A DNA stretch of 64,000 bases from assembly GCF_054482525.1 (NCBI RefSeq), contig NZ_CM137006.1. The stretch is one strand, 5' to 3'. The notes under the pieces were generated by a model. That model was not told the DNA's origin and ran no database searches. It saw only the letters and a program-made list of their open reading frames with translations. Within the stretch, counting starts at the first letter, position 1; each line of letters opens with the position of its first letter. Shown piece by piece: positions 9,631 through 29,924 of the stretch. Position numbers and translations under genes: made by a program.

Positions 9631-11631
9631 TCATCCTTGTTGCTGAAGCATGTGGAATAATTGTTCGCAAAGCAAAACACCGTTATTCATTGCTTCTACC
9701 CGTGCCTCGCTTTCTGTATTACAAAATTGTGCCAACACATGTGCCAGCCGATAAAAACCGACCGCGGTGAGGTCATTCGCCAGCAACTCTGCCTGACCAA
9801 TAGCACTCTGTTCCTGATAGCGCCAGCCGTTATGGAGCAGTTGAATAAGTAACGCCTGGCAGCGCATCAGCAACTGATGAGCGGTAGACGGCACAGGCAG
9901 AACGCTGGCAGAAGGTAGCGGTGCCACAGGCGCAGTTTCTGCGTCCAGCGCCCAGGCGCGGGTTTTGGTCATCATTACCCGTGGTTCCAGTGTCAATTGC
10001 CCCTCAACAAAACTGACAAAGCCAGAAACCAGACTCACGGGGTCGTCTGTGTGTTGCAAAAGTGCCGCCATGCGTTCAACGGCAAAAGGCGCGCTGGCTG
10101 AGGCTGGCAGTGATAAAGTCAGCAGATTATCTTCACCTTCGCCGCTGATTACCTGCGCATCCAGCGTCTGGCGGCTGCTATCCCAACCGAGTGAAATACA
10201 CTCAGCGACTGGCAGAATAAATAAGTTATCCACCTGATTAAGAGGCCGTATGCAGGCGGGGGGACGCTGGCGTAAATATTCCCGCAAAGCCACAATGCCC
10301 GACTGGCGCAATGGCGCGCTCAACATTTGCCAGGCGTCTGGCGACAGCGGCACAACGCTGCTTAAGCGGTTGCGGGTAGCTAACAACAGCTCGCCATCGG
10401 CACTGCGTTTTGCTGCTTGTGAAACAATTTGCCCACCTGCCAGTGCGCCAGCCAGAAAACTAAACAGCCGACGCGTCGCTGCCGGTGAGTTTTCCTGTTC
10501 GCTTCTCGGCCAACTACGCGAAAGATGCAAAATACTGCCAGTGTCGGGATCGGTAAACCAGATGCGTAAACCATAATGCTCAATATCCTGCCAGCAACGC
10601 ATACCTAAAGACACCAGCCGCAGATGATCAAGCTTTGCTTCTCCGGCAATGCCAGAGCCAACGACCGTGCGCCACGGCACAGGAGGAACTTCACCAACAC
10701 TGTCGCGCCGGGCCATCTCTTGTGCGCAATTTAATCGACTGTTTAATGCCGCAAGCTGACGTAAGCATTCTCCGACATGATAGTGGCTGGCGCGGGCGTG
10801 GAAGGCATCAACGCTGGCGCGCAGTTGCCGTAGCGATTCACTCACCCAGCGCCAGTTGCAGCGTTCCGCCGCTTGCTGCGCGCGGCTGAAAGCAGCCTTG
10901 TAATGAATAAGCGGCTGGCTGATGCCGCCAAGCCATAACGCCTGGCTTAATTGCTGAACATATTGACGACACGCGTCGCCCTCATCGTTGGCAAACGGAT
11001 CGTCAGATGATGTGACGTGTTCGCTGCGCATCTGCCAGATTAAATGAGTAAATTCCGCTTGCTGCGCTTTGGCCTGGACAAAGGCCTGTACTGCCAGTAC
11101 GACATGTTCGCAAAGTGTGCCGTCAATACAATCACAGCGTGCGAAACGAATGCTGCTGCGGGAATAAAAACGTACATCGCTCATCGGTAAGCGGGCAGAG
11201 GGAATTTCGCCCGGCGTACAGAACAACTCAATGGTGATGCCTTTAGCGACCAGTGTCTGTGCGCGTTTGCGGGTGGCATCGGGCAGGGTAGCCAGTTCTT
11301 CCAGCCAGATTGCCGGATCCCACTCTTCTTCTTTTTCCGTAGGCTGGGTGGTGGCGCAAAGTCGCTGATAACTTAAAACCAGCATCACGCGATGGCGGCA
11401 CATGCCGCTGGCCCCGCAGCTGCATTGAGCCTCTTTCAGTGCCTGACCGTTCGCCAGCTGGGTGCGGACACCGTCACTGAAGGTGGCGATTAAAGCGCCG
11501 TTCTCATGGCTGATTTCCGGGACGTTGCCATTTTCCAGTTCTTTAAGGCTGCGCTTAACAAAACCGGCATTGCTTAACGCCGTCAAAGCTTGTGGTGTCA
11601 GTTCTAATAATTCCGGCCGTAGTGAATTCAT
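9631..11631 (-). CDS. yehQ: SWIM zinc-finger protein YehQ
   Basis: Two CxC...CxH SWIM-like motifs (CSCGASGMCRHRV, CDCIDGTLCEHVV); its ATG overlaps the yehP stop (ATGA); exact start uncertain. Confidence 0.75.
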   Translation of the reverse strand: MNSLRPELLELTPQALTALSNAGFVKRSLKELENGNVPEISHENGALIATFSDGVRTQLANGQALKEAQCSCGASGMCRHRVMLVLSYQRLCATTQPTEKEEEWDPAIWLEELATLPDATRKRAQTLVAKGITIELFCTPGEIPSARLPMSDVRFYSRSSIRFARCDCIDGTLCEHVVLAVQAFVQAKAQQAEFTHLIWQMRSEHVTSSDDPFANDEGDACRQYVQQLSQALWLGGISQPLIHYKAAFSRAQQAAERCNWRWVSESLRQLRASVDAFHARASHYHVGECLRQLAALNSRLNCAQEMARRDSVGEVPPVPWRTVVGSGIAGEAKLDHLRLVSLGMRCWQDIEHYGLRIWFTDPDTGSILHLSRSWPRSEQENSPAATRRLFSFLAGALAGGQIVSQAAKRSADGELLLATRNRLSSVVPLSPDAWQMLSAPLRQSGIVALREYLRQRPPACIRPLNQVDNLFILPVAECISLGWDSSRQTLDAQVISGEGEDNLLTLSLPASASAPFAVERMAALLQHTDDPVSLVSGFVSFVEGQLTLEPRVMMTKTRAWALDAETAPVAPLPSASVLPVPSTAHQLLMRCQALLIQLLHNGWRYQEQSAIGQAELLANDLTAVGFYRLAHVLAQFCNTESEARVEAMNNGVLLCEQLFHMLQQQG

Positions 11632-12764
11632 GACTGAAGATTCTCCGCAAGCCAGGTCGCCAGTTCGCCCGGCGTCATGGCGGCTATTTGTGCGCCGACA
11701 TTAACCAGCGCCTGGGCCGTATCGTGGTCATAGCAAGGTGTTGCGGTGCTATCGAGCGCCGCCAGTCCCAGTACTTTGATGCCGCTCTGGACACACTTTT
11801 TCACCTGATGCGTCAGTAATGATGATGAACCCCCTTCGTAAAAATCGCTCACGAGGATAATGACGCTTTTCGCTGGTTGTTCAATAAGTTGCCGACCATA
11901 TTCCATGGCACTGGCGATATTGGTTCCGCCGCCTAATTGCACTTTCATTAATAACTCTACCGGATCGGCAACGTCTGCCGTGAGATCAACCACGCTGGTG
12001 TCAAACGCCACCAGATGGGTACGAATACCGGGTAACTGCCATAAACAGGTCGCCATCACCGCTGAGTGGATCACCGAGTCCACCATTGATCCGCTTTGAT
12101 CAACCAGTAAGACCAGTTGCCATTGTTCACTGTGGCGCTTAATGCGGCTGTTAAAGCGGGGGGATTCGATATACAACTTGCCGTGTTGCGGATGCCAGTG
12201 TTGCAGGTTGGCGCGCAGCGTACTTTTGAAATCAAAGTTTCGCGCCAGTGGAATAAATGAGCGGCGACGGCGATCGCGGACACCAGAAAAAGCCTGACGA
12301 ACTTCCTTTGCCAGTCGCGCCATAATCTCTTCAACAACCTGGTGCACTATCCGGCGGGCGGCAGCCAGCACTTCGGGATTCATCAGATGTTTAGTGTGCA
12401 AAACGGCGCGTAGCAGGCTTTCAGAAGGCTGCATACGTTCCAGCACGTCGAGATTCGTCACCACATCTTCAATGCCGTAGCGCAGTACGGCATCGCTTTC
12501 CAGCCGCTCGATCACCTGTTGCGGAAACAGCGTGTGAATACTGTTGATCCACTTAGGGGTGGTGAGATTTGAGTCACCTAATCCACCGGAGCGTTCACCA
12601 CGCTGGAGCCGTTCAGGATCGCGCCCATACAGCCACTCCAGCGCGTGGTCTATCTGCCGGGCATTGTCATCCAGCCCACAAAGGGTCGTTTCTGCCGCTT
12701 CGCCAAGAATTAATCGCCAGCGATGTAGCTCACGGGTGGTCAGAAGATCGTTCAGTTCAGACAT
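11628..12764 (-). CDS. yehP: von Willebrand factor A (VWA) domain protein YehP
   Basis: MIDAS-like DQSGSM motif; start placed at MSELNDLL giving 378 aa. Confidence 0.85.
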   Translation of the reverse strand: MSELNDLLTTRELHRWRLILGEAAETTLCGLDDNARQIDHALEWLYGRDPERLQRGERSGGLGDSNLTTPKWINSIHTLFPQQVIERLESDAVLRYGIEDVVTNLDVLERMQPSESLLRAVLHTKHLMNPEVLAAARRIVHQVVEEIMARLAKEVRQAFSGVRDRRRRSFIPLARNFDFKSTLRANLQHWHPQHGKLYIESPRFNSRIKRHSEQWQLVLLVDQSGSMVDSVIHSAVMATCLWQLPGIRTHLVAFDTSVVDLTADVADPVELLMKVQLGGGTNIASAMEYGRQLIEQPAKSVIILVSDFYEGGSSSLLTHQVKKCVQSGIKVLGLAALDSTATPCYDHDTAQALVNVGAQIAAMTPGELATWLAENLQS

Positions 12765-15036
12765 GGAAAACTCCCCAGTGTTGCAGCGATGCCAGTGCCT
12801 GCTGTTCGAGTTGTTGATGATGTGCAATGGCTTGCGGTGGACAATGCAACGGCATTTGCAGCGCTGAAACGGGAAGCTGTGCGAGCTGGTAATGCTCAAG
12901 CACCTGATGCGCCAGCGTCCCGCGTTCTCGTGGTGGTAGCCAGGCCATCGCCGCACGCAAATCGGGCAGGGCGTTAATAAAATCGTCGTCACTCAGTTGA
13001 TTTAAATGACTACTGAAACCGGCGATAAATGCCGGCTGACAGGCCAGTTGATGGCGGGCCAGCGCCAGCAAACCGTGCAGTGCCTCGCCGGATTGTGCCG
13101 GGGATAATTGCGCCAGCATCGTCAGCGCCGCTTCGGCACTGGCGTTGGGATGTTCCAGACGCATCAGTGCGCCAAGAGCCGCGCCGCGATCCAGCGCCGA
13201 GGCATGAATCGCCTGACTGCGGCGCTCAAGTAAGGCTACCGCCGCAGAAAGCGAAACGCCGGGTAAATTAACGCCGCTATGTAGATCGCGCAGGATATGG
13301 CAAAGCGCCTGCCAGCTATGCAGGTGAGCGTGAAACTCCTTTTCCTCCGGTCTGCCGTTGGATTCACACAGCCAGAGTGTGCGATCGATAGCCGCGCATA
13401 ACGTCGTCTGTAATATCTGCGCGCCTTGCATACCGCTAATTTCATCCAGCCGCCATAAGGCGTATAGCACTTCCAGCGCCTGGCCCATTTCGGCAAACTG
13501 ATTTTCCTGGGCGATTAATAATGTAAGTTGCTCCAGTAATTGTTGACTGAAGGACGCCAGACCCGCTAACGCCGCCTGGCTAAGACATGTGGTGATACTG
13601 CCGATTCCACCCGCGTCCAGCATATCGGCTTCTAATTTATTGCGTGCGGCTTCCTGGAGTGTGGCACCAAAGCAGGCGGCCTCAATTAATGCCGCATGTT
13701 GGCTAAGCGGGCGGGTTAATTTCCAGCGTTCTTCACCGTTGCCTGCAAGTGTCAGTGTACTTCCCTGCTGGCGCACAACCCCTGGGATCTCCAGTATTGC
13801 CAGCCGATGTAACACCTGACTTTGCGCTAGTCCATTGGGGTTAAAGCGATTTAAGGTAAGCTCCGCCGGAAGAGAGATTGCGGTACGTTCCAGTTCGCAG
13901 GTGACATCTTTTGGCAGAGGCGGTTGTGGCGTAGAAGGGGCAAGTTTACCGAATCCGTCACCCGCTAATGTGTCTATCAACGTTAGCAGAATCGGATCGG
14001 TATCGGGATGAATAACGCCGCGATAGCTCCACGGCAACGGCGCATTCAGGGCTTCTTTAATCAGCGAGCCTGCTATGGCATCCAGCCAGTCAGTGCGTAA
14101 CGGTAGTGTATGACCGCGCAACTGTGCCAGTGCCATCGCATGCAGATGAGCGGCAGCCATATCCGCTGTTGAAGCAGGCAAGTGGTGCTGGCGCAAACGG
14201 GTAAGAACCGTTTTCAGCAGTTGTTCACCTGCCTGCTGCAAGCCCCACCGCCAGCACCAGTTTTGCCAGACCGGGGCAGGCATACCGGAAAGGTATCCTG
14301 CCAGCACATCAAGGCGCTTTTCACTGTAGGGTGTGAGATAACAACCTGTAACGGCATCATCCAGTAAGAGCAATTCTGGCGTGTTAATTACCTGCGGACA
14401 TTCGCGCCACATTTTTGCCAGTGCCGGAGCGTGCCAGCCACCGCAGACAACTAACACGTCGCCATTATTTTGCTGCATCGCCCATCCAATCCAGCGGGCC
14501 ATAAAGGCTTCGCGCTGACGATTGAGAGCATCTCCGGGGGAGTCGCCCCGCAGTTGGGCAAAATAGTGCGCAAGTGCAGAGGGTAATGCAGTTTGCTGCC
14601 TTTCATCTTCGAACAAGTGATCCCACAGGGTGTCGCTGTTATCCATGCGGGTGGCACGCAGCAGCAAGGTCTGGCTTTCCTCTTGCGTATCAGGCGAATC
14701 GTCCTCTTCTTCACTCTGCGCCCAGCAAGGCAAATCGATGAAGTAAGTTTGTGCCTGAATACGACGAGCGGCTTGTAGCGCCTGCCACTCCGGCGAAAAT
14801 TCAGCAAATGGCGTCCAGGCACCACGCCCGGGGGCCGCACCGTCCTGATACTGGCAATAACTGTAAATAGCTACCGGAAGCTGGTGGGCTAACAACAGTT
14901 CGTCTACCCGGTCATTAAAATCAGCCGGGCCTTCAATCAACACATATCGTGGCCGCTGGCTTTCGATTAACGATTTCACCAGCCGGGCGCAGGCCGGACT
15001 ATGATGCCGGATGCCGACAATTAACGGCTCGCTCAT
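12757..15036 (-). CDS. yehM: Uncharacterised protein YehM
   Basis: Start placed at MSEPLIVGIRHH giving 759 aa; overlaps yehP start and yehL stop. Confidence 0.8.
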   Translation of the reverse strand: MSEPLIVGIRHHSPACARLVKSLIESQRPRYVLIEGPADFNDRVDELLLAHQLPVAIYSYCQYQDGAAPGRGAWTPFAEFSPEWQALQAARRIQAQTYFIDLPCWAQSEEEDDSPDTQEESQTLLLRATRMDNSDTLWDHLFEDERQQTALPSALAHYFAQLRGDSPGDALNRQREAFMARWIGWAMQQNNGDVLVVCGGWHAPALAKMWRECPQVINTPELLLLDDAVTGCYLTPYSEKRLDVLAGYLSGMPAPVWQNWCWRWGLQQAGEQLLKTVLTRLRQHHLPASTADMAAAHLHAMALAQLRGHTLPLRTDWLDAIAGSLIKEALNAPLPWSYRGVIHPDTDPILLTLIDTLAGDGFGKLAPSTPQPPLPKDVTCELERTAISLPAELTLNRFNPNGLAQSQVLHRLAILEIPGVVRQQGSTLTLAGNGEERWKLTRPLSQHAALIEAACFGATLQEAARNKLEADMLDAGGIGSITTCLSQAALAGLASFSQQLLEQLTLLIAQENQFAEMGQALEVLYALWRLDEISGMQGAQILQTTLCAAIDRTLWLCESNGRPEEKEFHAHLHSWQALCHILRDLHSGVNLPGVSLSAAVALLERRSQAIHASALDRGAALGALMRLEHPNASAEAALTMLAQLSPAQSGEALHGLLALARHQLACQPAFIAGFSSHLNQLSDDDFINALPDLRAAMAWLPPRERGTLAHQVLEHYQLAQLPVSALQMPLHCPPQAIAHHQQLEQQALASLQHWGVFHV

Positions 15037-15046
15037 GCATCTTTCC

Positions 15047-16135
15047 TCACGGCAGGCGGTGGCGAGCTTGATAATAAGCCTGCCAGTGAGCTTCTTTATG
15101 TGTGGCGACGCGCTGTTCGAAGTAACGGCGCAGACGCGCGCGATCTTCTTCGTTATCTTTGACGATGGTTCCGGCAATACAGTCCACCAGGTCGGCAGGC
15201 TCCCCCGCGCGATTCGCTAAAAACCAGGCGCGGACACCCACAGCATGGGCCACGTTAACGGCTTCAGCGGTGGACATAATCGCTGTCAGTGTATCCATTG
15301 ACGTTTTCTTTTCGCCGTTGGCACGCAGATCGCGGAACGTGCGCACCAGTAATTCCAGTACCGTGTCAGGCACTTTATGCGGAATACCGCTATGGGCCAG
15401 CAAACGCGCCGAAGCACTGGCGACCAGTTCCAGCTCCTGGGCGAAATCCATAATCGGAAAGACAGTTTCAAAATCGAAGCGACGCTTTAGCGCAGCACTC
15501 ATTTCATTGACGCCGCGATCGCGGGTATTGGCAGTGGCAATAATATTAAAGCCTTCTCGCGCATAGAGCTGACTGGCTTCACCAGTGAGTTCCGGCACCG
15601 TCATTACCCTGTCAGAAAGCATACCTAACAGACAGTCTTGTACTTCCAGCGGTGTACGCGTTATCTCTTCAAAACGGACAATTTTGCCGTCGCGCATTCC
15701 CTGGTAAAGCGGGGCTGGGACCAGCGCTTCCGTTGACGGACCATGGTTGATAAGCAGGGCGTAGTTCCAGCCGTACTTGATTTGATCTTCAGTGGTAGAT
15801 GCGCCGCCCTGGATGGTTAACCCGGCATCGCCGCTAATAGCGGTTGCCAGTAATTCAGACAGGAGAGATTTTGCGGTGCCAGGTTCCCCCACCAACATCA
15901 AACCGCGCCCGGTTGCGAGAGTGACTAACATGCGTTCGACAGCGGAGGGGCTAATCACGACTTTACGGCTAATATTTTGTGCTTCGTCGCCAAGGATAAA
16001 AGCGCGGGCCGCAGGCAAACTTAACTGCCAACCTGGCGGGCAAGGTGCGTTATCATTTTGTTTTAATTTTGCCAGTTCATCGGCGTATAACACAGCGGCA
16101 GGCGGACGCTGCAGATGATTATTCTGCGGTGACAT
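15047..16135 (-). CDS. yehL: MoxR-like AAA+ ATPase YehL
   Basis: Walker A GEPGTAKS and AAA core; start placed at MSPQNNHLQ giving 362 aa. Confidence 0.85.
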   Translation of the reverse strand: MSPQNNHLQRPPAAVLYADELAKLKQNDNAPCPPGWQLSLPAARAFILGDEAQNISRKVVISPSAVERMLVTLATGRGLMLVGEPGTAKSLLSELLATAISGDAGLTIQGGASTTEDQIKYGWNYALLINHGPSTEALVPAPLYQGMRDGKIVRFEEITRTPLEVQDCLLGMLSDRVMTVPELTGEASQLYAREGFNIIATANTRDRGVNEMSAALKRRFDFETVFPIMDFAQELELVASASARLLAHSGIPHKVPDTVLELLVRTFRDLRANGEKKTSMDTLTAIMSTAEAVNVAHAVGVRAWFLANRAGEPADLVDCIAGTIVKDNEEDRARLRRYFEQRVATHKEAHWQAYYQARHRLP

Positions 16136-16567
16136 ATATTCATCCCTGAAATGTATTAATGAAATAAACGATATTTTACGCGCAATAAATGTTTGGCGCA
16201 TTAGTTGTTTGAGCGAAAAATATCTGGAAAGCAGATCACAGTAAATAAAAAAACCTGCTGGTGAGGCAGGTTCTTTGATTTACTACTTTCAGGCCTAACA
16301 CCACGGCCTGTGCAACATCGTGTTCCAACGAACGAATTATAACCATCGGTGGACCCCGTTGCAATTAAGATAATGAGATTTATAATCCTGACTGTTGGGA
16401 CGTTGCGCCGGATCGAACCCATTTCAAGTCCTGGCTACCGGACGGGTGGTGCCGCAGGTAGTGCCCTGATCCGGAGTGCAACATCGTGGTCCAACATACG
16501 TAAACCAGTATCGACAGGCAGTGTAAGGGTAAGGTGCTGGTGTTGCGCTCCTTAATAAGGAGAGCGA

Positions 16568-16657
16568 ATGGACACGCTGACACAAAAGTTAACCGTGCTC
16601 ATTGCTGTACTGGAGCTATTAGTGGCTCTGTTACGGTTGATTGATTTGTTGAAGTAA
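16568..16657 (+). CDS. zorO: Type I toxin ZorO, 29 aa (MDTLTQKLTVLIAVLELLVALLRLIDLLK)
   Basis: Hand-translated; SD aaggagag upstream; hydrophobic helical peptide matching my recollection of ZorO from E. coli O157. Confidence 0.75.
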   Translation: MDTLTQKLTVLIAVLELLVALLRLIDLLK

Positions 16658-16680
16658 TGGGCAAATTGAAACGCAACTAA

Positions 16681-16703
16681 GGGGGAAAACCGCTTCCCCC
16701 TTT
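16681..16703 (+). terminator. Intrinsic terminator of zorO copy 1
   Basis: gggggaa-aaccgc-ttccccc hairpin followed by ttt. Confidence 0.7.
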
Positions 16704-17176
16704 AATAAAATGATTACATCTTCCATTAATTCACCCGATAACTTTTTTCATATTTATAAATTCATCGATTTTATAATCAACGTACTATTTGGCCGGGATG
16801 TGAATAATCATGGTGGGCTATTGGCGAAAAATATCTGGAAAGTAGATCGTAGAAAATAAAAGAACCTGCTGGTGAGGCAGGTTCTTTTATTTACTACTTT
16901 GATGTTAAGTTACTGATAGTGCAACATGGCATCTCAACGAACGAATTATAACCACCGCTGGACCGTGTTGCAATTAAGATAATGAGATTTATAATCCTGA
17001 CTGTTGGGAAGTTGCGCCGGATCGAACCCATTTCAAGTCCTGGCTACCGGACGGGTGGTGCCGCAGGTAGTGCTCTGATCCGGAGTGCAACATGGCGACT
17101 CAACATACGTAAACCAGTATCGACAGGCAGTGTAAGGGTAAGGTGCTGGTGTTGCGCTCCTTAATAAGGAGAGCGG

Positions 17177-17266
17177 ATGGACACGCTGACACAAAAGTTA
17201 ACCGTGCTCATTGCCGTACTGGAGCTATTAGTGGCTCTGTTACGGTTGATTGATTTGTTGAAGTAA
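17177..17266 (+). CDS. zorO: Type I toxin ZorO (second copy), 29 aa, identical peptide
   Basis: Same ORF, SD and terminator context as copy 1. Confidence 0.75.
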   Translation: MDTLTQKLTVLIAVLELLVALLRLIDLLK

Positions 17267-17387: not shown

Positions 17388-17639
17388 TTATTCACCTCGT
17401 AATTTCCGCTCATCAATACACTCATCTCTTATATAAATCAACGCATCATTTATTAGCGGGTCAACATCCTCTCGATCACGTTGATGAAATGTTGGACGTA
17501 GCCGGAACCGTTCCAGTCGGTAAACGGAACCTGTAAATAATTCAGAGCATTTATGGATCTCAAGTCTGAAGGAAAACGGATCTTCAGGTACAGGGACCTC
17601 ATAATTGTAAATAGCGACCAGCTCTTTTTGCACGCTCAT
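17388..17639 (-). CDS. Small hypothetical protein, 83 aa (position matches K-12 yehK, not confirmed)
   Basis: ORF only; no motif recognised. Confidence 0.35.
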   Translation of the reverse strand: MSVQKELVAIYNYEVPVPEDPFSFRLEIHKCSELFTGSVYRLERFRLRPTFHQRDREDVDPLINDALIYIRDECIDERKLRGE

Positions 17640-17699: not shown

Positions 17700-20600
17700 T
17701 TAATGGAAAATGACGTCGGGTGCGCTTAACGCCTCACTCAAATCAAACACATCAAGTTCGGCAAAAGTGACAGATTTATTGTCACGGTATACATGAAGAG
17801 AACGGAAGCTCATTAGCGCTTTGCTATCAACATTGTAGTGGTTAAAACCGGATGAAAACTTAAGGACCAGCCGGTACTCGCCCAGGTCATAGACAAATGC
17901 GTTCTCATAGCCTGACTCCCAGCCTTTGTATCGCATTCCCATAAGTTGCCCAACGGTAGCAGATTTACCTTCCCAGCGATTCAAACTATTACTGGCTGAC
18001 TCGTCAGGCGTGAGCAGTACTGTGCGCCGTGCCAATTGGCGAAAAGGCGGCATAATTTCGTAATCGGCAAAAAGCTGTGCAAACTCACTGCGCATTTCTG
18101 CTGCCATTTCTAACGGGTGGGCAATGCCAATCAGAGCATCGGCAGGCAGGTCAATTGGCTCATCTTGCTCATTGCAGAACTCCCCCTCAGCGGCCACACG
18201 AAAGGCGTTGAGTAAACGACGCGGTTCATTTGCCGGATAAACACCCCATATTAATCGCTGAGTAACCAGACGGGTAAAGGGATGATTAACAAACAGAGAA
18301 TGAAAATCTGCCAGCGACCAGCGTCGGGTGGTGCGCAGGGCAGTTTCAAGACGCGGGAGCAGGTTTTTGCTCACCTGAGTGGCATCTTTTTTTAGCCCTT
18401 TTAGTCGGGCCAGTGCCTCGGGTGCTTTCAGTTGATCGTCATCGGCGCGCAACCGGGGAACGCTTTTCTGGCGAACGTTTTGCTGATCAAAGATAACCGG
18501 GTTAAGGTTTTCATCGAAGCGAACGGTAAATTGCCGTGGACCAAAATCAAAAATCAACGCCTGCGGATCATCAAGACCCAGTGTTGGGACTAATCTGTCC
18601 GCTAACTGTTCCTGGCTTAGCCCTCGATTTTCTGCGACCACCTGAAGAAATTCCGCCGCGTTATCACGTAAGGGGCGGGATTTCGCCCGTTGCGATATAT
18701 GATGCAGCTGTATCAGTGCCATATCATTATTCATCTGAGTAAGGATGTTCAGGCCGCTGACGGCACGGGCAGATTTGCCTTCCTGTGGCCAGGCAAGGAT
18801 CTGTGTTGTTAGATCCCGTGCCGTGCTTTCGTCGCCAAAGAGACTTAACGCCAGAAATGCCCAGTTGTCTTTTGCGGGAGCACCAGCTTGTTGCCACGCG
18901 GTGAAAAGATCCCAGGCAAAGGCTGCCAGCGTTTGCGGCTGGCAAAACGTTTTCAGCTGTTCCAGTCCGCTATAAAAACGTCCGCCCTGGGTAAAGCGCA
19001 GCATTTCGCCGATAATTTCCAGAGCGTCATCAGTAACAGGTTGATTATTCGTGATAAGGCGCGGCCTGGACCACATTGCCGGCTGCCAGAAATCAGGGGC
19101 TTTTGGAATGCGTGTCGGGTAAATCTCTATTGGACTCTGTTTAAGTAATTGCTCCAGGGCAGGCCATACATCTTTACGCTGCCAGCGGTTTGCCACGGTT
19201 TGCAGTAACTCGCCATGTCCCTGTTCGTAAAGTAAACGCAGGGCAAGTAATGCAGCTTCGCTATTATCGCTGGATTTGGTGAAGACAAGAGGGATAAGTG
19301 CAGTAGCTGTATGTTCCGGCCATTGTAAAATCCACTGGCGGGCCAGATCTCGCTGCGCCGCGAAACGTCGCCAGACGCGGGCAACGGGCAGGGCCAGTTC
19401 GGTTGCGCCGAAATTTAAAATTAACGGAAATGTTTCTTTTGGACGATGTGAAAAAGCCAACAGCAGACCTGGTAGAGCATCCAATCCGAAGATACTGAGA
19501 AAATAGTCCTCACCCGCAGACAGATGCTTTTTCTCATTGATACGTAGCCAGAAAGTCAAAGCCATCTCACGCGGCAACTGCGCCAATAAATACAGGTTCC
19601 AGATACTCTTTTCCCGACGATAGCGTGAGTAGCTGTCATTTTCCCATATGTTAATTAACACTTCTACGTGACCGCTGTGAAGCGCCTGTTCTGCTAATTG
19701 AGCTTCCGGGGAGCTCCAGCCATTCATGATCTCTTCAACCCGCCCTGGGTAGTAATGCCACTGAACAATGAGTGAATTGCGTGCAGCATCCAGTTTTCCG
19801 GGGAGTATATAATTCAAAAACAGCCATACATCATCTCCAAAACCCAGCTCCTGTAGTACAACTCGTCCACTTTTTTGTTCCATGCGTTCCGCAAGAGATT
19901 CCGTGCTGAAATAACGGGCAGACGCAGTGGCGGCAAGCCTCTCTCGTTCGCCTGGTTGCCAGTAAACTTGCGGCGTTAATTCGAACGGTGCCAAATCAAG
20001 ACGTGGAACTGTCATTTTTTTCTTACTACGCCACGGTGGTGAAACGAGGATTTCAGGCATTTGGCTGTTATCGGTGCTATCAATAACCGTTTTGGACGGT
20101 GCCGATAAATAACTATTCAGCATTGCCCGGGCTTGAGTACTTAACCACGGCATCACCTCTTCTGCCAGTTGTGGCTGCGATGCCATCAGCGTTTGTAACA
20201 GCGTACGCCAGTATTCATCGCGTGCTTTTTGCTGTGCAGGCAGCTTTTTGTCTTCAATGATTGGATAACCAGGGCGCGCAGGTGGTTCTTTTAACGCCAG
20301 CAGTTCTGCTAATGCGGCGAGCGTCGCATGGGGGAAGTTTTTACTGTATTTAGCCACACGTTGCAGGCTGGGTTTGTTTTTATCAGCAACTAACAGCAAG
20401 GTGCGGATGACTTGCGGATGGTTAATTTGTACCAGCAGACTGCCGCAATCTTCTTTATGGGCATACATCGCGAGGCGCGGAACGGCTGCCAGTCCTTGTT
20501 CGCGCAAAAGGGCGGCGCAGGCCGCGTAGCCGAAGCGGTTTTCTTGTGACATGTAGCTGGCTTCGCGATCGCTAAATACGTCCAGGCCCCAGTATCGTTC

Positions 20601-21332
20601 GAGTTTTTTTACCGCCGTATTATCAGTAGCAACGACCTTTAACCACTCCTTTGAATGGAGACTTGACCGGGAGCTTTCAAAACTGGCGAGTTCATTGGCT
20701 ATTTCAGGTTTTTCCGGGAGGATCAGCGCAATAAAAGGACGGCGAATTTTGGGTATTCCTGGCAGTGCGGCAATGAGTTTATCGGCACAACGCTGCCAGC
20801 AACTTTCCTCTGCCAGCGACAGATGCTTACGCAAACGGAGATCGAAATCGTTATAGGTCGCGGAGCCATAACCGTAGCTATAGTCCTCGTCCTGATACTG
20901 CAAAGTGACGACCAGTGAGTCACTCTCATAACGCCGCGCAATGCACTGACGCGATATCACTACATCCGTCGCATATTCCAGCCCCTCTTGTTGCACGATT
21001 TCATCAAGTAACTGCTGGCTGTCATTTTGCGCGATACAGATCAGAGCCGCCATGGTAAGGGCTGGGATTGACGGTTTATGCTCGCCAGTCAAATTGATTG
21101 CCTGCTGGATGGCGGACTGCCACTCCAGTGAGCATTTATCATAATTCCAGGTGATATTTTCCTTCTGGCCTGCTTGTTGTAGTAATTCATCTCCCAATGT
21201 CTGGATGAGACTTCCAGTGATAACGGACACTGGTTCGCCCGGCCAGCGACGATGACTGAGCGGCGTTTTGCCTTTTTTATATTTCAGTTCCAGTTGGGCG
21301 TTATCCGCCAGCCACGGTAATTCCTTGTCCAT
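17700..21332 (-). CDS. yehI: Large DUF4132-family protein YehI (1210 aa)
   Basis: Length and synteny; clear paralogy to the adjacent molR ORF across most of its length. Confidence 0.85.
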   Translation of the reverse strand: MDKELPWLADNAQLELKYKKGKTPLSHRRWPGEPVSVITGSLIQTLGDELLQQAGQKENITWNYDKCSLEWQSAIQQAINLTGEHKPSIPALTMAALICIAQNDSQQLLDEIVQQEGLEYATDVVISRQCIARRYESDSLVVTLQYQDEDYSYGYGSATYNDFDLRLRKHLSLAEESCWQRCADKLIAALPGIPKIRRPFIALILPEKPEIANELASFESSRSSLHSKEWLKVVATDNTAVKKLERYWGLDVFSDREASYMSQENRFGYAACAALLREQGLAAVPRLAMYAHKEDCGSLLVQINHPQVIRTLLLVADKNKPSLQRVAKYSKNFPHATLAALAELLALKEPPARPGYPIIEDKKLPAQQKARDEYWRTLLQTLMASQPQLAEEVMPWLSTQARAMLNSYLSAPSKTVIDSTDNSQMPEILVSPPWRSKKKMTVPRLDLAPFELTPQVYWQPGERERLAATASARYFSTESLAERMEQKSGRVVLQELGFGDDVWLFLNYILPGKLDAARNSLIVQWHYYPGRVEEIMNGWSSPEAQLAEQALHSGHVEVLINIWENDSYSRYRREKSIWNLYLLAQLPREMALTFWLRINEKKHLSAGEDYFLSIFGLDALPGLLLAFSHRPKETFPLILNFGATELALPVARVWRRFAAQRDLARQWILQWPEHTATALIPLVFTKSSDNSEAALLALRLLYEQGHGELLQTVANRWQRKDVWPALEQLLKQSPIEIYPTRIPKAPDFWQPAMWSRPRLITNNQPVTDDALEIIGEMLRFTQGGRFYSGLEQLKTFCQPQTLAAFAWDLFTAWQQAGAPAKDNWAFLALSLFGDESTARDLTTQILAWPQEGKSARAVSGLNILTQMNNDMALIQLHHISQRAKSRPLRDNAAEFLQVVAENRGLSQEQLADRLVPTLGLDDPQALIFDFGPRQFTVRFDENLNPVIFDQQNVRQKSVPRLRADDDQLKAPEALARLKGLKKDATQVSKNLLPRLETALRTTRRWSLADFHSLFVNHPFTRLVTQRLIWGVYPANEPRRLLNAFRVAAEGEFCNEQDEPIDLPADALIGIAHPLEMAAEMRSEFAQLFADYEIMPPFRQLARRTVLLTPDESASNSLNRWEGKSATVGQLMGMRYKGWESGYENAFVYDLGEYRLVLKFSSGFNHYNVDSKALMSFRSLHVYRDNKSVTFAELDVFDLSEALSAPDVIFH

Positions 21333-21341
21333 GCTCTTTCC

Positions 21342-24300
21342 TTATTCAAACAGGGCTTCAATATCGTTAATTAGCTCGCTGGCGGTGATGGCATCGAGTA
21401 CGGAGAGCTGCGCTTCCTGTGTTGAATTACTCCTCCAGCCATAGCTTTCTGCTTTGCCTTCCCATAGCCACAGCTTGCTTAAGATTTGCTCGGCACTCAG
21501 TTCGGCTGGTGACATACCCACCGCAAAACCTTCATCGATTTCCATGATTAACGACCAGCGGCCCAGAGGTTTGATCATCCAGCCGATCCAGCCTGCATCC
21601 AGCGGGGTGCCCTTTATCCAACCTTTATTCGCCAGTCCCATGACCCGACCGCTCGGGCATTTTCTGCCTGCCCAGCGGATCAATTCGCTGGCATTGCGCT
21701 CGGTTTCTGTCAGGGCGTAACTGTTACGGTCGAGCTGGCGAAACGGCGGTAGCAGTTCGTAGTCGGCAAAAAGCTGACCAAAGGCGGCAGCATCCGTGGG
21801 TGATATTTCCAGAACGTGAGGAATACCAACAGAGATATCGCCTTCCGGCGGGGTGAAAAGATCATCGTCAGCGGTGCTGTAGCTGTTATCTTCCGCCACG
21901 CGAAAGCAAGCCAGTAGCTCGTTTTCGGCGCTATAAACGCCCCAAATCAGACGGCGGGTTAAGTGACGAACCAGCGGATGCTCAACCAGGAAGAGCTGAA
22001 AGTTTTCCGGCGACCAGCGGCGGCGCAGGCACATGGCGGATTCCAGCCTTGCTACCTGCTGGGCGGCGACGGTACGCGCATCTTTTTTCAGCAATTTGTA
22101 GCGGTTAACAGCATCGTTCGCCTGTGATTCATCATCGCTTTTATTGGGTTTAGGTAAGTCTTTCAGGCGGCTGCCGGAAACATCGCGCACAAACGGTTTT
22201 AAGGTTTCATCAAAGCTGACGGTGAACTGCCGTGGGCCAAAATCCAGCAGCAGCGAACCGTTATCATCCAGACCGAGATCCGGTGCTAACCGGTCTTCAA
22301 GTTCCGCCACCGTGAGTTCGCGGCTCTCGGCAATGTCGGCAATTTTTTCTTTCGCCCGCTCCTGTAAGGCTTTGAATTTCAGTTTCTGGGCGATGCCGTT
22401 AAGCTGCATCAGGGCGATATCGCTGCCGATAGCAGCGAGAATATCCAACCCAACGGTGGCACGTTTATGCTGAGATTCGCCAGGCCAGGCGCGGATTAAT
22501 GGCGTCAGTTTGCGGGCGGCGTCATCGTTACCGAGAACGCCTAACGCAGTGAACGCCCAACTCTCTTTCGACGGCGCGCCAGCGGTCTGCCAGGCGGTAA
22601 ACAGATCCCAGGCAAATTCAGCCAGTGAGTCGGCGGTACAGGCATCTTTCACCTGCAATAATCCCGGATACAGCGCCTCCTCCTGATGGAAGCGGAGCAT
22701 TTCACCGAGGTGCTGGAGTGCGCTATCGGGCAGTGATTGGGCGCTTGCTTTTAATACCGGGCGGTTCCAGAGCGATGGCTGATAAAAGGCCGGAAGAGTG
22801 GGGATTTTTGTCGGGTGATTATCTAAGGGATCGAGCGCAAGCAGAGCGTTCACCGCGTCTGTTACTTCCGGCTGGTTATAACGCCGGGCGATTTCTTGCA
22901 GTAATGGCTGATGACCGTTTTCGGTAAGCATACGCAAGGCAGCGCGGGCGTTATCCTGTGCTTCACCGGATTTGCCGAGCGCCGAAGGTAGCAGGCCGGT
23001 AATGGCGTGTTCCGGGTATTTCAGCAGCCAGGTGCGGGCGTCTTGTCGTAGGGTTTTGAGTTTGTTGAAGGCGCGGGCGATCAGTGGCGCTAATTCGATA
23101 GCCGCAAAATATTGTGCTACAGGCAGAGCTTCTTGTGGATAGCGTGAAAAGGAGTGAATAAAACCCTGTAACCCAGTGAGTTGCAGGTGCGTCATGACAA
23201 ACTCGACACCGACGTGTGGCTCTTTACTGAGGACATTCCACGCCTGCGCTGTCTTTTCGATAGGCAGGGTGGCTAACATGTAAAGCTGCCATTCCCGTTG
23301 ATAGGAGTGCCAGAAGGTTTTAAATTCGCTGATCAGCGCGGAATAATGTCCCCTTTGCCAGAGATCTATAGCAGCATCAGGCGCTTTCATATACTGGCCA
23401 TTATTCCAGCGATTGAAACCCAGACGTGCCAGGTAGTTCTGAATATCCTCTTTTTGGCCGATGTCTATTTGATGTGCGTGCCAGCGATGCCTTGCATGAA
23501 TCTCTTTTTCTGCCGTCTCGGTCAATGTGCAGCATGACTCCAACGATAATGGCGTTAAATCCAATACCGGTATAACAGATTTTTTCTTTTTCGAAAGCCA
23601 GGGCGGTGAGACTAATACGGCAGGCAGTAGATCGGCGCAGGCATGGTTTGAGGGCTGTGTCAGTTGTTGCAGGCATGCTTTCAGCACTGCAACTGCGGGT
23701 GTTGAGAGCCAGGGAGTGACCTGTTCTGCTAGTGCCGGTTGCGAGATAAGCATCGTCATTAGCATAATGCGCCAACTATTCTCTTCTTTTTGCGCAAGAA
23801 GTTCCGCCAGTGCCGCCAGTGCCGTGTGTGGGAACGCAGCGCAAGCCTTAGTCATTCGTTCATGGCAGCGTTTAGTTTTGCCAGACACACGTATAAGTAG
23901 CATTAATGCTTGTGGGTGATTGATCTCTGCGAGAATACTTCCGCAAAGATCAGCATAAGCATAGGGGGCGAAGCGAGCGATTCCGGCAATCCCTTGCTCC
24001 TGCAAAACGGTGACATTCCAGATGCAACCATGGTAATAGTCATTAAAAAGGTCGTACGCGCAATAAGATTCCAGTGCTTTGAGCAAGGAAGATTCTTGTA
24101 CAACAAGTTTCAGCCATTCAACAGTTTGGATATTTTTCTGCTCCAGTAACCGTCGTGCGATTTCTTCTGCAATCTCCGGGCGTTCCGGTAGCATTAGCGC
24201 TACCATCGGTTGTTGAACGGGAGGAATATCAGGCAAAGCTGTAATGAATTTATCTACACAGCGTTGCCACAAAGTTTCTTCTGCTAGAGCCAAATGTTTA

Positions 24301-25091
24301 CGCAGTCGAACGTCAAAGGGGGTAACACAATGTGCATGGTTTAATAATGGCTGAAAAGTAATGTGTATGCTTATTCTGTGATAAGTGCAATCGAACGAGA
24401 TATATTGCATGGCAATAAACATATCCACGGCAAATTCTAGTCCGTAGACATAGACAATTTCATCCATGAGTTCAGGGCATTCGTCCCAGAATTTACGTGA
24501 AACCAGAACAACCTGTACAGCCAACGCAGCAGGAGAAAGTGGACCATTAGCGAGAGCTTCATTGATATTCTGCTGCCAGTTAGCAGAACATGCACTGAAA
24601 TCGTATGTTGTTATTTTTCCTGATAGATTATGAATATCCTGACCTAAATTCATAAGGAGGCTGTCTTGTGGTTCGCTTACAGCATCCCCAGGAAAACGTC
24701 GGGAAGGTAAGGCCTCCTGAGACTTTTTCTCCGATAGATGGATAGTGGAATCATCTGTCAGCCACGGGCATGGTGTCTCAGCAGGTTCAGCAACCATACT
24801 TTGGTCAAATACGACTGTGGTTTCTGCCACGCCAGTTGTATCTACTTCGATCGTTTCTATTTTGATTGCGGGTTGGGATGGCGAAGATAATTCTTCCACA
24901 TACCCCTTCTTCACCTTCTCCGCAATCAGCTTCAGTCCCGCTTTTTCCGCCGCTGCTGCATCCGCAAAGCTTTTTACCTGGTTTTGCCCTTTGGTGCCAA
25001 CTTTTCCCCAACAGATATGCAACTCGTTTCCCTGTTGCTCCACCGCCCAGAATTTATGTGATTTTTCGTCCTGAAAGATAAAGTGCCTCAT
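21342..25091 (-). CDS. molR: Intact MolR: N-terminal WGR domain plus DUF4132 region (1249 aa)
   Basis: N-terminal FWAVEQQGNELHICWGKVGTKGQ is WGR-like; remainder is paralogous to YehI; uninterrupted here. Confidence 0.8.
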   Translation of the reverse strand: MRHFIFQDEKSHKFWAVEQQGNELHICWGKVGTKGQNQVKSFADAAAAEKAGLKLIAEKVKKGYVEELSSPSQPAIKIETIEVDTTGVAETTVVFDQSMVAEPAETPCPWLTDDSTIHLSEKKSQEALPSRRFPGDAVSEPQDSLLMNLGQDIHNLSGKITTYDFSACSANWQQNINEALANGPLSPAALAVQVVLVSRKFWDECPELMDEIVYVYGLEFAVDMFIAMQYISFDCTYHRISIHITFQPLLNHAHCVTPFDVRLRKHLALAEETLWQRCVDKFITALPDIPPVQQPMVALMLPERPEIAEEIARRLLEQKNIQTVEWLKLVVQESSLLKALESYCAYDLFNDYYHGCIWNVTVLQEQGIAGIARFAPYAYADLCGSILAEINHPQALMLLIRVSGKTKRCHERMTKACAAFPHTALAALAELLAQKEENSWRIMLMTMLISQPALAEQVTPWLSTPAVAVLKACLQQLTQPSNHACADLLPAVLVSPPWLSKKKKSVIPVLDLTPLSLESCCTLTETAEKEIHARHRWHAHQIDIGQKEDIQNYLARLGFNRWNNGQYMKAPDAAIDLWQRGHYSALISEFKTFWHSYQREWQLYMLATLPIEKTAQAWNVLSKEPHVGVEFVMTHLQLTGLQGFIHSFSRYPQEALPVAQYFAAIELAPLIARAFNKLKTLRQDARTWLLKYPEHAITGLLPSALGKSGEAQDNARAALRMLTENGHQPLLQEIARRYNQPEVTDAVNALLALDPLDNHPTKIPTLPAFYQPSLWNRPVLKASAQSLPDSALQHLGEMLRFHQEEALYPGLLQVKDACTADSLAEFAWDLFTAWQTAGAPSKESWAFTALGVLGNDDAARKLTPLIRAWPGESQHKRATVGLDILAAIGSDIALMQLNGIAQKLKFKALQERAKEKIADIAESRELTVAELEDRLAPDLGLDDNGSLLLDFGPRQFTVSFDETLKPFVRDVSGSRLKDLPKPNKSDDESQANDAVNRYKLLKKDARTVAAQQVARLESAMCLRRRWSPENFQLFLVEHPLVRHLTRRLIWGVYSAENELLACFRVAEDNSYSTADDDLFTPPEGDISVGIPHVLEISPTDAAAFGQLFADYELLPPFRQLDRNSYALTETERNASELIRWAGRKCPSGRVMGLANKGWIKGTPLDAGWIGWMIKPLGRWSLIMEIDEGFAVGMSPAELSAEQILSKLWLWEGKAESYGWRSNSTQEAQLSVLDAITASELINDIEALFE

Positions 25092-25231: not shown

Positions 25232-27265
25232 TTATTTCACCTGATGACCCGGTTTAGCACCGGCATCCGGGCTTAGCAGGAAAATATCTTTCCCGCCAGG
25301 ACCGGCAGCCATCACCATGCCTTCGGAGATACCGAAGCGCATTTTACGTGGTGCCAGGTTAGCCACCATAATGGTGTGACGACCAATCAGTGCCTGCGGA
25401 TCCGGGTAAGCAGAACGAATGCCGGAGAAGACATTGCGTTTTTCACCGCCGAGATCCAGCGTCAGGCGCAGCAGTTTGTCAGAACCTTCAACAAACTCTG
25501 CGTTTTCAATCAGTGCCACGCGCAGGTCAACTTTGGCGAAGTCATCAAAGGTGATAGTTTCCTGGATTGGATCGTCAGCCAGCGGGCCAGTTACCGGCGC
25601 GGCAGCGGCTTTTACTTCTTCTTTAGATGCTTCCACCAGTGCTTCAACCTGCTTCATATCGATGCGGTTATACAGCGCCTTGAACGGATTCACTTTATGG
25701 CCCAACAGCGGTTGCTGGATACCATGCCAGGTCAGTTCTGTATTGAGGAATGCTTCTGCACGCTCGGTCAGTTTCGGCAGTACCGGCTTCAGGTAAGTCA
25801 TCAGCACGCGGAACAGGTTGATGCCCATCGAGCAAATTGCCTGCAGGTCGGCATCGCGGTCTTCCTGTTTCGCCACCACCCACGGAGCCTGTTCATCGAC
25901 ATAGCGGTTAGCCAGATCAGCCAGCGCCATAATTTCGCGTACTGCTTTACCAAATTCGCGGCTTTCCCACGCTTCACCAATCACTTCAGCGGCATCAGTG
26001 AAGGTTTTGTACAGTTGCGGGTCAGCCAGTTCGCTTGCCAGCACACCGTCAAAACGCTTGTTGATAAAGCCAGCGTTACGGGAGGCCAGGTTAACCACTT
26101 TATTCACGATATCGGCATTCACGCGCTGAACGAAATCTTCCAGGTTGAGATCGATATCATCAATGCGCGAAGAGAGTTTCGCAGTGTAGTAGTAACGCAG
26201 GCTGTCAGCGTCAAAATGATTCAGCCAGGTGCTGGCTTTAATAAAGGTGCCGCGAGACTTGGACATCTTCGCGCCGTTCACCGTCACATAGCCATGAACA
26301 AACAGGTTAGTCGGCTTGCGGAAGTTGCTGCCTTCCAGCATGGCAGGCCAGAACAGGCTGTGGAAGTAAACGATATCTTTACCGATGAAGTGGTACAGCT
26401 CGGCGGTGGAATCTTTCTTCCAGTATTCATCGAAGCTGGTGGTGTCGCCGCGTTTGTCGCACAGATTCTTGAAGGAACCCATGTAGCCAATCGGCGCGTC
26501 CAGCCAGACGTAGAAATATTTGCCCGGTGCGTTCGGAATTTCAAAACCGAAGTACGGCGCATCGCGGGAGATATCCCACTGTTGCAGGCCAGATTCAAAC
26601 CACTCCTGCATTTTGTTTGCCACCTGCTCCTGCAACGCACCGCTGCGGGTCCATGCCTGCAACATTTCGCTGAAAGAGGGCAGATCAAAGAAGAAGTGTT
26701 CAGAATCACGCATTACCGGCGTAGCACCAGAAACCACCGATTTCGGCTCGATCAATTCAGTCGGGCTGTAGGTCGCGCCGCAGACTTCGCAGTTATCGCC
26801 GTATTGATCCGGGGATTTACATTTCGGGCAGGTGCCTTTCACAAAACGGTCCGGTAGGAACATGCCTTTTTCCGGATCGTACAGCTGAGAAATAGTGCGG
26901 TTTTTAATAAAACCGTTTTCTTTCAGGCGAGAGTAGATAAGTTCTGACAACTGGCGGTTCTCTTCGCTGTGCGTCGAGTGATAGTTGTCATAGCTGATGT
27001 TAAAGCCTGCGAAATCAGTCTGATGCTCCTGACTCATTTCGCCAATCATCTGCTCCGGGGTGATACCGAGCTGCTGAGCTTTCAGCATGATCGGTGTACC
27101 GTGGGCATCGTCGGCGCAGATGAAGTTGACCTCGTGGCCGCGCATTCGCTGGTAACGGACCCAGACATCAGCCTGGATGTGCTCCAGCATATGGCCGAGG
27201 TGGATTGAGCCGTTAGCGTACGGCAGTGCGCACGTCACCAGAATTTTCTTCGCGACTTGAGTCAT
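25232..27265 (-). CDS. metG: Methionyl-tRNA synthetase
   Basis: Class I HIGH (ANGSIHLGH) and KMSKS motifs; start placed at [10 protein letters not shown] giving 677 aa. Confidence 0.95.
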
Positions 27266-27396
27266 AGTAGGCATTACTTCTTAATAGTGAAAAGGGGTTA
27301 GATAGTACCAAATGGGAAAATGTTAAGTAAGTACTTCTCTATATTCTTCAGGTAAACTATCAGCTGATGGTTTATCTATACAAAAAAGGAGTCGGG

Positions 27397-28768: not shown

Positions 28769-29050
28769 ATGAATAAGTACTGGCTGTCAGGAATTATTTT
28801 TCTTGCCTATGGAATGGCTTCTCCCGCGTTCTCTTCACAGACTGCCACATTAACGATTAATGGCAGGATCAGTCCCCCAACATGCAGTATGGTTATGGTT
28901 AATGGTCAACCTCAACAGCATTGTGGTCAGTTAACGTATGATGTTGATACCCGTCATCAGGTTTCTTCGCCAGTCAAAGGTGTAACGACAGAAGTGGTTG
29001 TTGCAGGTAGCGATAGCAAACGTCGAATCGTGTTAAATCGCTACGATTAA
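28769..29050 (+). CDS. yehE: Small secreted protein YehE
   Basis: 93 aa with signal peptide; sits upstream of the yeh fimbrial operon. Confidence 0.7.
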   Translation: MNKYWLSGIIFLAYGMASPAFSSQTATLTINGRISPPTCSMVMVNGQPQQHCGQLTYDVDTRHQVSSPVKGVTTEVVVAGSDSKRRIVLNRYD

Positions 29051-29888: not shown

Positions 29889-29924
29889 TAAATAAAATTT
29901 CAAGTTTCTCCAGGTAATAAACAT

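Follow-up and report, generated by a model that had tools for sequence, protein, structure and literature searches.

What do two large tandem genes, molR and yehI, do beside a MoxR/VWA gene module, and which of their features sets this locus apart? We examined this question on a 64,000-nucleotide (nt) stretch of DNA (contig NZ_CM137006.1 of NCBI RefSeq assembly GCF_054482525.1), called the window hereafter, in which both genes are located on the minus strand between positions 17,700 and 25,091. A preliminary description of this DNA had drawn attention to the uninterrupted molR and to the WGR domain of its product. In our analysis the unusual part of the locus, which that description had missed, is the extreme polymorphism of MolR within Escherichia coli, carried by two exchangeable cassettes, and the pattern may be that of a recognition subunit serving the neighbouring module. 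The organisation of the two genes is as follows (aa, amino acids; ORF, open reading frame; pLDDT, predicted local distance difference test):

21342..25091, minus strand: molR, intact 1249-aa ORF with an ATG start, encoding WGR, an alpha-solenoid and DUF4132
24891..25091, minus strand: WGR domain of MolR (aa 1-67), conserved between alleles
24783..24884, minus strand: predicted disordered linker from WGR to solenoid (aa 70-103), pLDDT < 50
23802..24911, minus strand: hypervariable cassette 1 of MolR (aa 61-430)
23514..23801, minus strand: conserved middle segment of MolR (aa 431-526), with a near-invariant LPxVLxxPPW motif
23172..23513, minus strand: hypervariable cassette 2 of MolR (aa 527-640)
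21345..23171, minus strand: conserved C-terminal half of MolR (aa 641-1249), which includes DUF4132
21618..22175, minus strand: DUF4132 of MolR (aa 973-1158)
17700..21332, minus strand: yehI, 1210-aa ORF, MolR paralogue without WGR, with DUF4132 at aa 954-1138

The two ORFs are separated by 9 nt. The reading of molR as one unbroken frame is confirmed, and its product is 100% identical to WP_001215558.1 of E. coli SCU-102, a strain that matches the region at 100% in an orientation reversed relative to K-12. All six long genes of the region (molR, yehI, yehL, yehM, yehP and yehQ) are likewise uninterrupted in the window. The WGR assignment had been named beforehand as a point on which the preliminary description could fail. 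On Pfam, WGR (PF05406) covers MolR residues 5-67 with 65.3 bits for a gathering cutoff of 22 (E 5.4e-18), and the same threshold is passed by three other E. coli alleles (66.9-68.9 bits), while an NCBIfam scan matched the WGR region to a Leptospira family alone, below threshold. DUF4132 (PF13569) scores 170.5 bits in MolR, with the whole model covered (positions 1-179 of 179), and 160.6 bits in YehI, both above the gathering threshold. It is the sole Pfam domain of YehI, in agreement with the earlier claim that WGR is confined to MolR. Neither the variable nor the C-terminal pieces of MolR gave a match when scanned against Pfam at relaxed thresholds. The extended similarity of the two proteins could be seen as well, at 38% identity over 1180 aligned columns on BLASTP, with both motif pairs quoted previously falling into register (VRLRKHLALAEE with LRLRKHLSLAEE, and DYELLPPFRQL with DYEIMPPFRQL). 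This alignment pairs MolR residue 109 with YehI residue 6, so that YehI begins just past the MolR linker and therefore lacks exactly the WGR domain and the linker.

An intact molR with its WGR domain beside yehI is nevertheless ordinary for E. coli and already present in public annotation. Indeed, of 5426 complete E. coli genomes, 5406 contain molR DNA, at one position between metG and yehK, and in NCBI the encoded protein goes by two names, 'DUF4132 domain-containing protein' and 'WGR and DUF4132 domain-containing protein'. The gene is intact in 8 of the 11 genomes inspected and broken in K-12, O157:H7 9234 and K_EC180. As had been claimed, K-12 holds a decayed copy, annotated as yehF ('PF05406 family protein', 274 aa) and the pseudogene yehH, so that the WGR assignment is public for this strain too. 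The K-12 sequence is 99.7% identical to the intact allele of VE-T9, from which it is set apart by a stop after codon 274 and a 1-nt insertion at nt 2846. K-12 is thus one of several independently decayed cases and not the reference state. Hence, the facts of the preliminary description stand, but its emphasis on the intact gene and on WGR as notable traits does not.

The feature that does distinguish the locus emerges from a gene-by-gene comparison of the window with three other E. coli strains. Amino-acid identity across strains is 100% for apbC, 99.3% for metG (dN/dS, the ratio of nonsynonymous to synonymous divergence, of 0.02) and 99% for yehL, then 97% for yehP, 96-97% for yehM and 95-97% for yehQ; it falls to 89-92% for yehI and to 73-79% for molR, with a dN of 0.14-0.20 and a dS of 0.46-0.59. 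The divergence of MolR is distributed in blocks. Between alleles, the WGR (residues 1-60) is 82-92% identical, and residues 61-430 are 30-55% identical, a value as low as between paralogues. Residues 431-526 recover to 81-96% and form one class, residues 527-640 are either ~ 90% or ~ 35-45% identical depending on the allele pair, and residues 641-1249 reach 92-100% among E. coli alleles. YehI displays a milder version of this pattern, with a dS of 0.28-0.30 in the N-terminal half versus 0.05-0.07 in the C-terminal half.

Among 118 Escherichia MolR alleles, cassette 1 (aa 61-430) occurs in at least 5 classes that are mutually 41-64% identical, and cassette 2 (aa 527-640) in 3 classes with a minimum identity of 34%. 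The two cassettes assort independently, as illustrated by allele P0033, which has the cassette 1 of the window (98%) but a different cassette 2 (39.5%). The cassette 1 of the window is present in 153 of the 5426 complete E. coli genomes; in the remaining ones blastn covers at most 22% of it, at ~ 70% identity. Furthermore, E. fergusonii carries two of the allele classes, each ~ 95% identical to its E. coli counterpart and 46% identical to one another; the classes are therefore old and trans-species.

Inside one class, codons 106-430 of the window were compared with those of two other genomes having the same cassette 1. Over these 325 codons there are 0 synonymous and 1-3 nonsynonymous differences, whereas the flanks in the same genomes have diverged (dS of 0.31-0.45 in the WGR codons, 0.10-0.13 in the 3' half and 0.12-0.14 in metG). 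Recent recombination has therefore carried this cassette into diverged backgrounds. The GC content is 0.45-0.46 in the cassette 1 region (window 23500-25000), 0.52-0.56 in the 3' half of molR and ~ 0.51 in metG, and the lower value of the 5' variable part would fit, as a matter of composition, a separate evolutionary origin of the cassette. Regarding the flank itself, metG (25232-27274) has a DNA identity of only 96-97% to most E. coli, with a dS of 0.12-0.20, which is high for a housekeeping gene, and as a query it matched 219 places on records labelled plasmid.

We then considered what the variable region may look like. An AlphaFold model of MolR residues 1-1200, built from a 58-sequence alignment, reached a pLDDT of 89.6 and a predicted template modelling (pTM) score of 0.76. 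It consists of the WGR, the disordered linker (70-103), a long alpha-solenoid with small beta insertions and an alpha/beta C-terminal region. The cassette 1 region is predicted to be folded, with a pLDDT mostly between 80 and 97, and the fold matches of the variable region are exclusively of the HEAT/ARM type. According to the model, the variable region is thus a confidently folded alpha-solenoid, a typical binding scaffold. A separate model of residues 925-1249 gave a pLDDT of 92.7, and a fold search of the DUF4132 region returned no catalytic or enzyme fold. The modelled WGR has the fold known from PARP, an antiparallel sheet with a helix, and this fold matches the DNA-break-sensing WGR of PARP1 and PARP3; the eponymous motif reads W-G-K in MolR.

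Conservation is distributed accordingly along the chain, the N-terminal half being the variable part of MolR both family-wide and within E. coli. Residues conserved family-wide lie at ~ 640-1200, together with nearly all of the invariant ones, which cluster at 688-1158 and include R954, D986, R1024, H1092, Q1119 and R1122 of the DUF4132 region. Between the two cassettes, P490, L493, P496, P497 and W498 of the LPxVLxxPPW motif hardly vary, if at all, among 58-108 distant relatives.

Do MolR and YehI belong with the module next to them? The preliminary description had placed the pair beside a MoxR/VWA module and a toxin-antitoxin (TA) locus, and both neighbours were identified. The module, in the window, consists of four genes:

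15047..16135, minus strand: yehL, MoxR-type AAA+ ATPase (Pfam AAA_5, 119 bits)
12757..15036, minus strand: yehM (Pfam DUF5682, 326 bits)
11628..12764, minus strand: yehP (Pfam VWA_CoxE, 236 bits)
9631..11631, minus strand: yehQ, SWIM zinc finger protein (Pfam SWIM, 33 bits for a cutoff of 19.6)

An AAA_5 ATPase gene and a VWA gene are hence found in one operon. YehL is both founder and type of the YehL subfamily, one of the seven into which MoxR proteins are divided (PMC3893208). In a sequence search of the PDB, its nearest solved relatives are the AAA modules of midasin; YehM and YehQ have no solved relative in that search, and MolR matches solved structures through its WGR alone.

Relatives of the DUF4132 proteins were collected by a full HMMER scan of 1.84 billion cluster representatives (50% identity), which gave 8861 sequences at E <= 1e-3 and 2570 at E <= 1e-30. 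The portion that they have in common corresponds to MolR query residues ~ 630-1194. For the genomic context, 100,044 species genomes (one per species) were scanned; 557 matches were confirmed and 72 loci fetched, in which relatives of YehL, YehM, YehP and YehQ were located by phmmer. The full order, with 1-7 MolR-like genes followed by YehL, YehM, YehP and YehQ in one orientation, is observed at 44 of the 72 loci. Another 5 are cut by a contig end and 13 are too short to judge, while 10 are orphan loci, of which 9 come from Massilia genomes with full systems in addition. In 44-49 of 59 informative loci, the gene immediately after the DUF4132 gene or genes is a yehL relative. The full order extends over Gammaproteobacteria (Klebsiella, with three paralogues, Erwinia, Serratia, Thorsellia and Stenotrophomonas), Betaproteobacteria (Variovorax, Acidovorax, Massilia, Cupriavidus and Burkholderia, the latter with the DUF4132 gene last), Deltaproteobacteria/Myxococcota (Trichlorobacter and Hyalangium) and Actinobacteria (Mycolicibacterium and a Propionibacteriaceae genome). 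Moreover, precomputed Pfam annotation of three metagenomic contigs lists WGR with DUF4132, AAA_5, DUF5682, VWA_CoxE and SWIM in the same order. Since this linkage is conserved across phyla, the DUF4132 proteins belong to the YehLMPQ unit.

Among the long MolR-like ORFs at these loci, 81 have a WGR and 31 do not, and long relatives of 1400-1670 aa contain no additional Pfam domain. Two metagenomic contigs showed single variations on the theme. On one (L012, 6883-12213), a 1776-aa protein combines WGR and DUF4132 with the histidine-kinase domains HisKA and HATPase_c, with a response regulator upstream of the fusion gene and MoxR and DUF5682 genes downstream; this single case raises a possible link to two-component signalling. 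On the other (L087), an AbiEii gene (866-1870; abortive-infection or type IV TA toxin) is located directly upstream of an operon in the order WGR+DUF4132, MoxR, DUF5682, VWA, SWIM and DUF4132.

The number of MolR/YehI-type paralogues is variable as well, with 2-3 per genome in E. coli, 3 in Klebsiella and up to 7-8 in Massilia. In strain R2 and in the ST131-like (sequence type 131) strain 28Eco12, a third paralogue of 1266 aa with WGR and DUF4132 lies between metG and molR; O157:H7 also has three slots, with both of its MolR-type genes broken (third paralogue at 17775-21575 of L003, 15308-19105 of L009 and 16999-20808 of L006). This paralogue is 47% identical to MolR overall, 90% in the WGR and 70-80% over residues 819-1117. 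In Massilia (L040, L057, L070, L038 and L023), tandem arrays of up to 7-8 MolR-like genes are accompanied by several orphan copies elsewhere, which constitutes a lineage-specific expansion of the family.

The module is also frequently damaged. Among nine strains surveyed across the whole module, only 3 have every component intact, with inactivating lesions in yehM (four strains), yehL, yehQ, yehI and molR (loci L004, L006, L007, L008, L009 and L085). In yehM, yehL, yehQ and yehI no two lesions are alike, with nonsense codons at 510, 224 and 270 and deletions of 7, 11, 1 and 2 nt, and they are therefore independent events. We considered whether the pseudogene flags could be assembly errors and rejected this explanation in view of the nonsense substitutions, the 7-nt and 11-nt deletions and the differing sites. 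Another genome with the cassette of the window has a stop at codon 237 of molR. Furthermore, 184 ST131 isolates of sublineage L1a carry an insertion of the blaCTX-M-15 transposon TnMB1860 in their 'metG/DUF4132/yeh region' (PMC9334617); a successful clinical clone thus does without part of the yeh locus. Repeated independent loss of components fits a function that is costly or intermittently useful.

How could such a system work? Its five components are the DUF4132 protein or proteins, YehL (the MoxR AAA+ ATPase), YehM (DUF5682), YehP (VWA) and YehQ (SWIM zinc finger), and we suggest that YehL would be the engine. The C-terminal half of the DUF4132 proteins, with its solenoid and alpha/beta DUF4132 domain, would dock onto the ATPase/VWA engine, and the N-terminal solenoid with its two exchangeable cassettes would offer a recognition surface for diverse and changing ligands, possibly mobile-element or other non-self molecules. 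In MolR-type copies, the WGR on its flexible linker may add the sensing of nucleic acids or DNA ends. If it behaves like other MoxR-VWA pairs, the machine would use the metal ion-dependent adhesion site (MIDAS) of the VWA protein to couple the engagement of a ligand to remodelling driven by ATP. The presence of WGR and SWIM domains points to an involvement of nucleic acids or nucleoprotein complexes.

A conserved C-terminal half, ancient recombining N-terminal cassettes and a variable number of paralogues form the pattern expected of a recognition subunit, and this population-genetic pattern therefore favours a role in surveillance or conflict over a housekeeping one. We put forward this reading, in which MolR and YehI are paralogous polymorphic subunits of a MoxR/VWA machine, tentatively and with a confidence that falls a little short of an even balance. 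A broader version of it is more doubtful, though possible: DUF4132-YehLMPQ would be a widespread immune-like system in which arrays of polymorphic WGR-solenoid receptors act as interchangeable sensors loading a MoxR/VWA/SWIM engine. Balancing selection and the exchange of cassettes would maintain the receptor repertoire, and in some genera it would have grown to 7-8 paralogues.

Several observations weigh against a role in surveillance or conflict. None of the six proteins matched the 5027 models of PADLOC-DB v2.0.0 at E <= 0.01, and no recognisable effector domain (nuclease, protease, TIR or similar) is encoded anywhere in the operon. The location is not that of a defence island or a mobile element. 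Indeed, in E. coli the locus keeps its fixed core position, from metG to yehK, in the 5406 of 5426 genomes, and elsewhere ordinary genes surround it, with LysR regulators, transporters and metabolism genes predominating and with cytochrome c1 and SspB among the examples; in a set of 125 flanking ORFs from 44 loci, the 25 commonest families include no integrases or transposases, and there are only 8 hits to PADLOC hidden Markov models (HMMs). No phage record out of 50,697 has the system, and few plasmid records do (31 of 72,556, many being chromids or mislabelled chromosomes). As for selection, the pairwise dN/dS between classes is 0.31-0.34, hence below 1, with dS near saturation, and the nonsynonymous excess within a class amounts to just 1-3 substitutions, so that positive selection is not demonstrated. 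Moreover, several E. coli strains have a broken yehM, yehL or yehQ and yet an intact molR and yehI, which is unexpected if the DUF4132 proteins act only through the engine. Finally, no experiment on any component turned up in the searchable literature, nor any study of the function or polymorphism of DUF4132, YehI or MolR. A mention of YehQ in a cross-linking paper was discarded as functional evidence since the protein serves there as an entrapment-database decoy.

Part of this evidence speaks for a housekeeping maturation machine, in which YehL and YehP would be a dedicated chaperone that assembles or repairs one complex or metallocentre, with MolR and YehI as scaffold or substrate adaptor. 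All experimentally studied MoxR-VWA pairs have been described as maturation factors for specific complexes (PMC3893208), YehP falls into the CoxE-type VWA family, and the chromosomal core position, the ordinary flanks and the lack of a match to the defence models are what such a machine would display. However, no candidate client gene is conserved beside the five components in any taxon, and a fixed client leaves unexplained the allele identities of 34-64%, the reassorting cassettes, the trans-species classes and the arrays of up to 7-8 paralogues. Frequent losses of independent origin in E. coli likewise speak against an important housekeeping role, and we consider this explanation unlikely. 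These same losses could instead mean that the operon is a cryptic, decaying relic whose polymorphism reflects relaxed constraint, the intact copies being those not yet broken; the 3 fully intact strains out of 9, the independent lesions and the genome with the same cassette and a stop at codon 237 all point in this direction. Yet every allele class retains a full-length ORF (more than 1200 aa), with ~ 95% conservation between the E. coli and E. fergusonii versions, and dN/dS is 0.1-0.35 and not 1. In addition, the variable region is predicted to be well folded, a cassette has spread recently across diverged backgrounds with no synonymous change, and the architecture is maintained across phyla, which together make a relic distinctly improbable.

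It has also to be considered that MolR and YehI are themselves effectors, toxic or inhibitory proteins that the MoxR/VWA engine restrains or activates and whose target is set by the variable region, as in polymorphic toxins. Loci for polymorphic toxins and their immunity proteins typically have polymorphic modular cassettes and tandem arrays, and the invariant Arg, His, Asp, Gln and Trp residues of DUF4132 could form an active or binding site. On the other hand, the fold search of that region found no enzyme fold, and we judge this explanation highly improbable, slightly more so than the relic. Least probable by far is the role contained in the historical name, namely a transcriptional regulator of molybdate metabolism. 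The database labels ('molybdate metabolism regulator', 'MolR family transcriptional regulator') are all that speaks for it, and the anatomy of MolR already contradicts it, since the 1249-aa protein is modelled as a solenoid and domain scans reveal no helix-turn-helix or other regulator domain. Across phyla the gene is linked to MoxR, VWA and SWIM genes and not to those of molybdate transport or cofactor synthesis, and its neighbours in the window are metG, yehI and yehLMPQ. MolR is furthermore hypervariable and often broken, in K-12 among others, and K-12 handles molybdate normally.

The remaining elements around the two genes were annotated as well. The TA locus of the window lies in the spacer between yehK and yehL and is a type I zor-orz locus in two tandem copies:

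16247..17266: zor-orz type I TA locus, two tandem copies
16247..16322 and 16858..16931, minus strand: OrzO-P small RNAs (Rfam, 91.9 and 90.2 bits)
16568..16657 and 17177..17266, plus strand: toxin ORFs of 29 aa, identical (MDTLTQKLTVLIAVLELLVALLRLIDLLK)
17388..17639, minus strand: yehK remnant, broken, 83-aa ORF; 'internal stop' in SCU-102

The zor-orz family was described by Fozo et al. 2010 and is absent from K-12 (PMC2887945). We considered it as a possible part of the yeh system and rejected it, as it is a known insertion that is missing from K-12 and from other genera. The yehK gene is intact in other strains, where it encodes 105 aa with no Pfam match, and is frameshifted in several. Further away, at ~ 36300-39000 (28967-31750 in locus L001), the window and SCU-102 have a tyrosine integrase, an HNH endonuclease and small hypothetical genes after a thiamine pyrophosphate (TPP) riboswitch; other strains have thiM and thiD at this site. 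The segment looks like an integrated element.

Taken as a whole, the locus encodes a MoxR/VWA system with five components, which nearly every E. coli has and which extends to many other phyla. The system has been catalogued, through the YehL subfamily, but lacks characterisation; what is new is a polymorphic, multi-copy fifth component in a MoxR-VWA system. Its cassette pattern opens a concrete, testable way into an E. coli operon that has remained an orphan, and into the MoxR subfamily that is understood least. Should the role in conflict prove true, a common chromosomal immune-like system would be absent from current defence catalogues.

Which known systems, then, does it resemble? MoxR ATPases and their VWA partners are chaperone-like remodellers of specific complexes (PMC3893208). 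The studied pairs (RavA-ViaA, CbbQ-CbbO, NorQ-NorD and CoxD-CoxE, with midasin as the fused eukaryotic version) are like the yeh system in having an AAA_5 ATPase gene and a VWA gene in one operon. They have no counterpart, however, to its obligatory DUF5682, SWIM and DUF4132 partners, and the yeh system differs from them in having no client enzyme nearby and a DUF4132 partner that is hypervariable and multi-copy. A second comparison is offered by the vWA-MoxR-VMAP 'ternary' NTP-dependent conflict systems of Kaur et al. 2020, in so far as they are summarised in a later preprint (bioRxiv 10.1101/2023.09.22.558884) and in PMC10910872. As outlined there, they too combine a MoxR ATPase with a vWA protein and with system-specific extras, and for them as for the yeh system a coupling of a diversified sensor with an ATP-dependent switch has been proposed. 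Pfam finds no VMAP among the yeh proteins, giving only DUF5682 for YehM, SWIM for YehQ and WGR and DUF4132 for MolR and YehI. Similarly, YehL scores 18.3 bits with the bpMoxR model of the conflict clade, for a cutoff of 27, and the peptidase, TIR, cyclase and effector-associated domains of the ternary systems have no equivalent in the operon. Diversification takes place through allelic cassettes and paralogue arrays instead of retroelements. By analogy, the yeh system would thus work like the vWA-MoxR-VMAP systems and would not belong to them.

At the level of single domains, MolR has no PARP catalytic or helical domain and its motif is W-G-K, and according to the model its WGR is tethered to the solenoid by a disordered linker of ~ 35 residues, unlike that of PARP1/2/3. 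For an immune-like system, NLR (nucleotide-binding leucine-rich repeat) proteins or receptor arrays would be functional analogues, with a different ATPase and with no effector known here. The closest parallel for the cassettes themselves is type I restriction, in which the target-recognition domains of HsdS are allelic specificity cassettes placed between conserved segments. MolR has no sequence or fold relationship to HsdS, and MolR and YehI are about three times larger. Nonetheless, in both HsdS and MolR two independently reassorting variable modules are set between conserved segments of one polypeptide, and in both the modules occur in more than one species and travel by homologous recombination, and the polypeptide serves a conserved multi-subunit enzyme.

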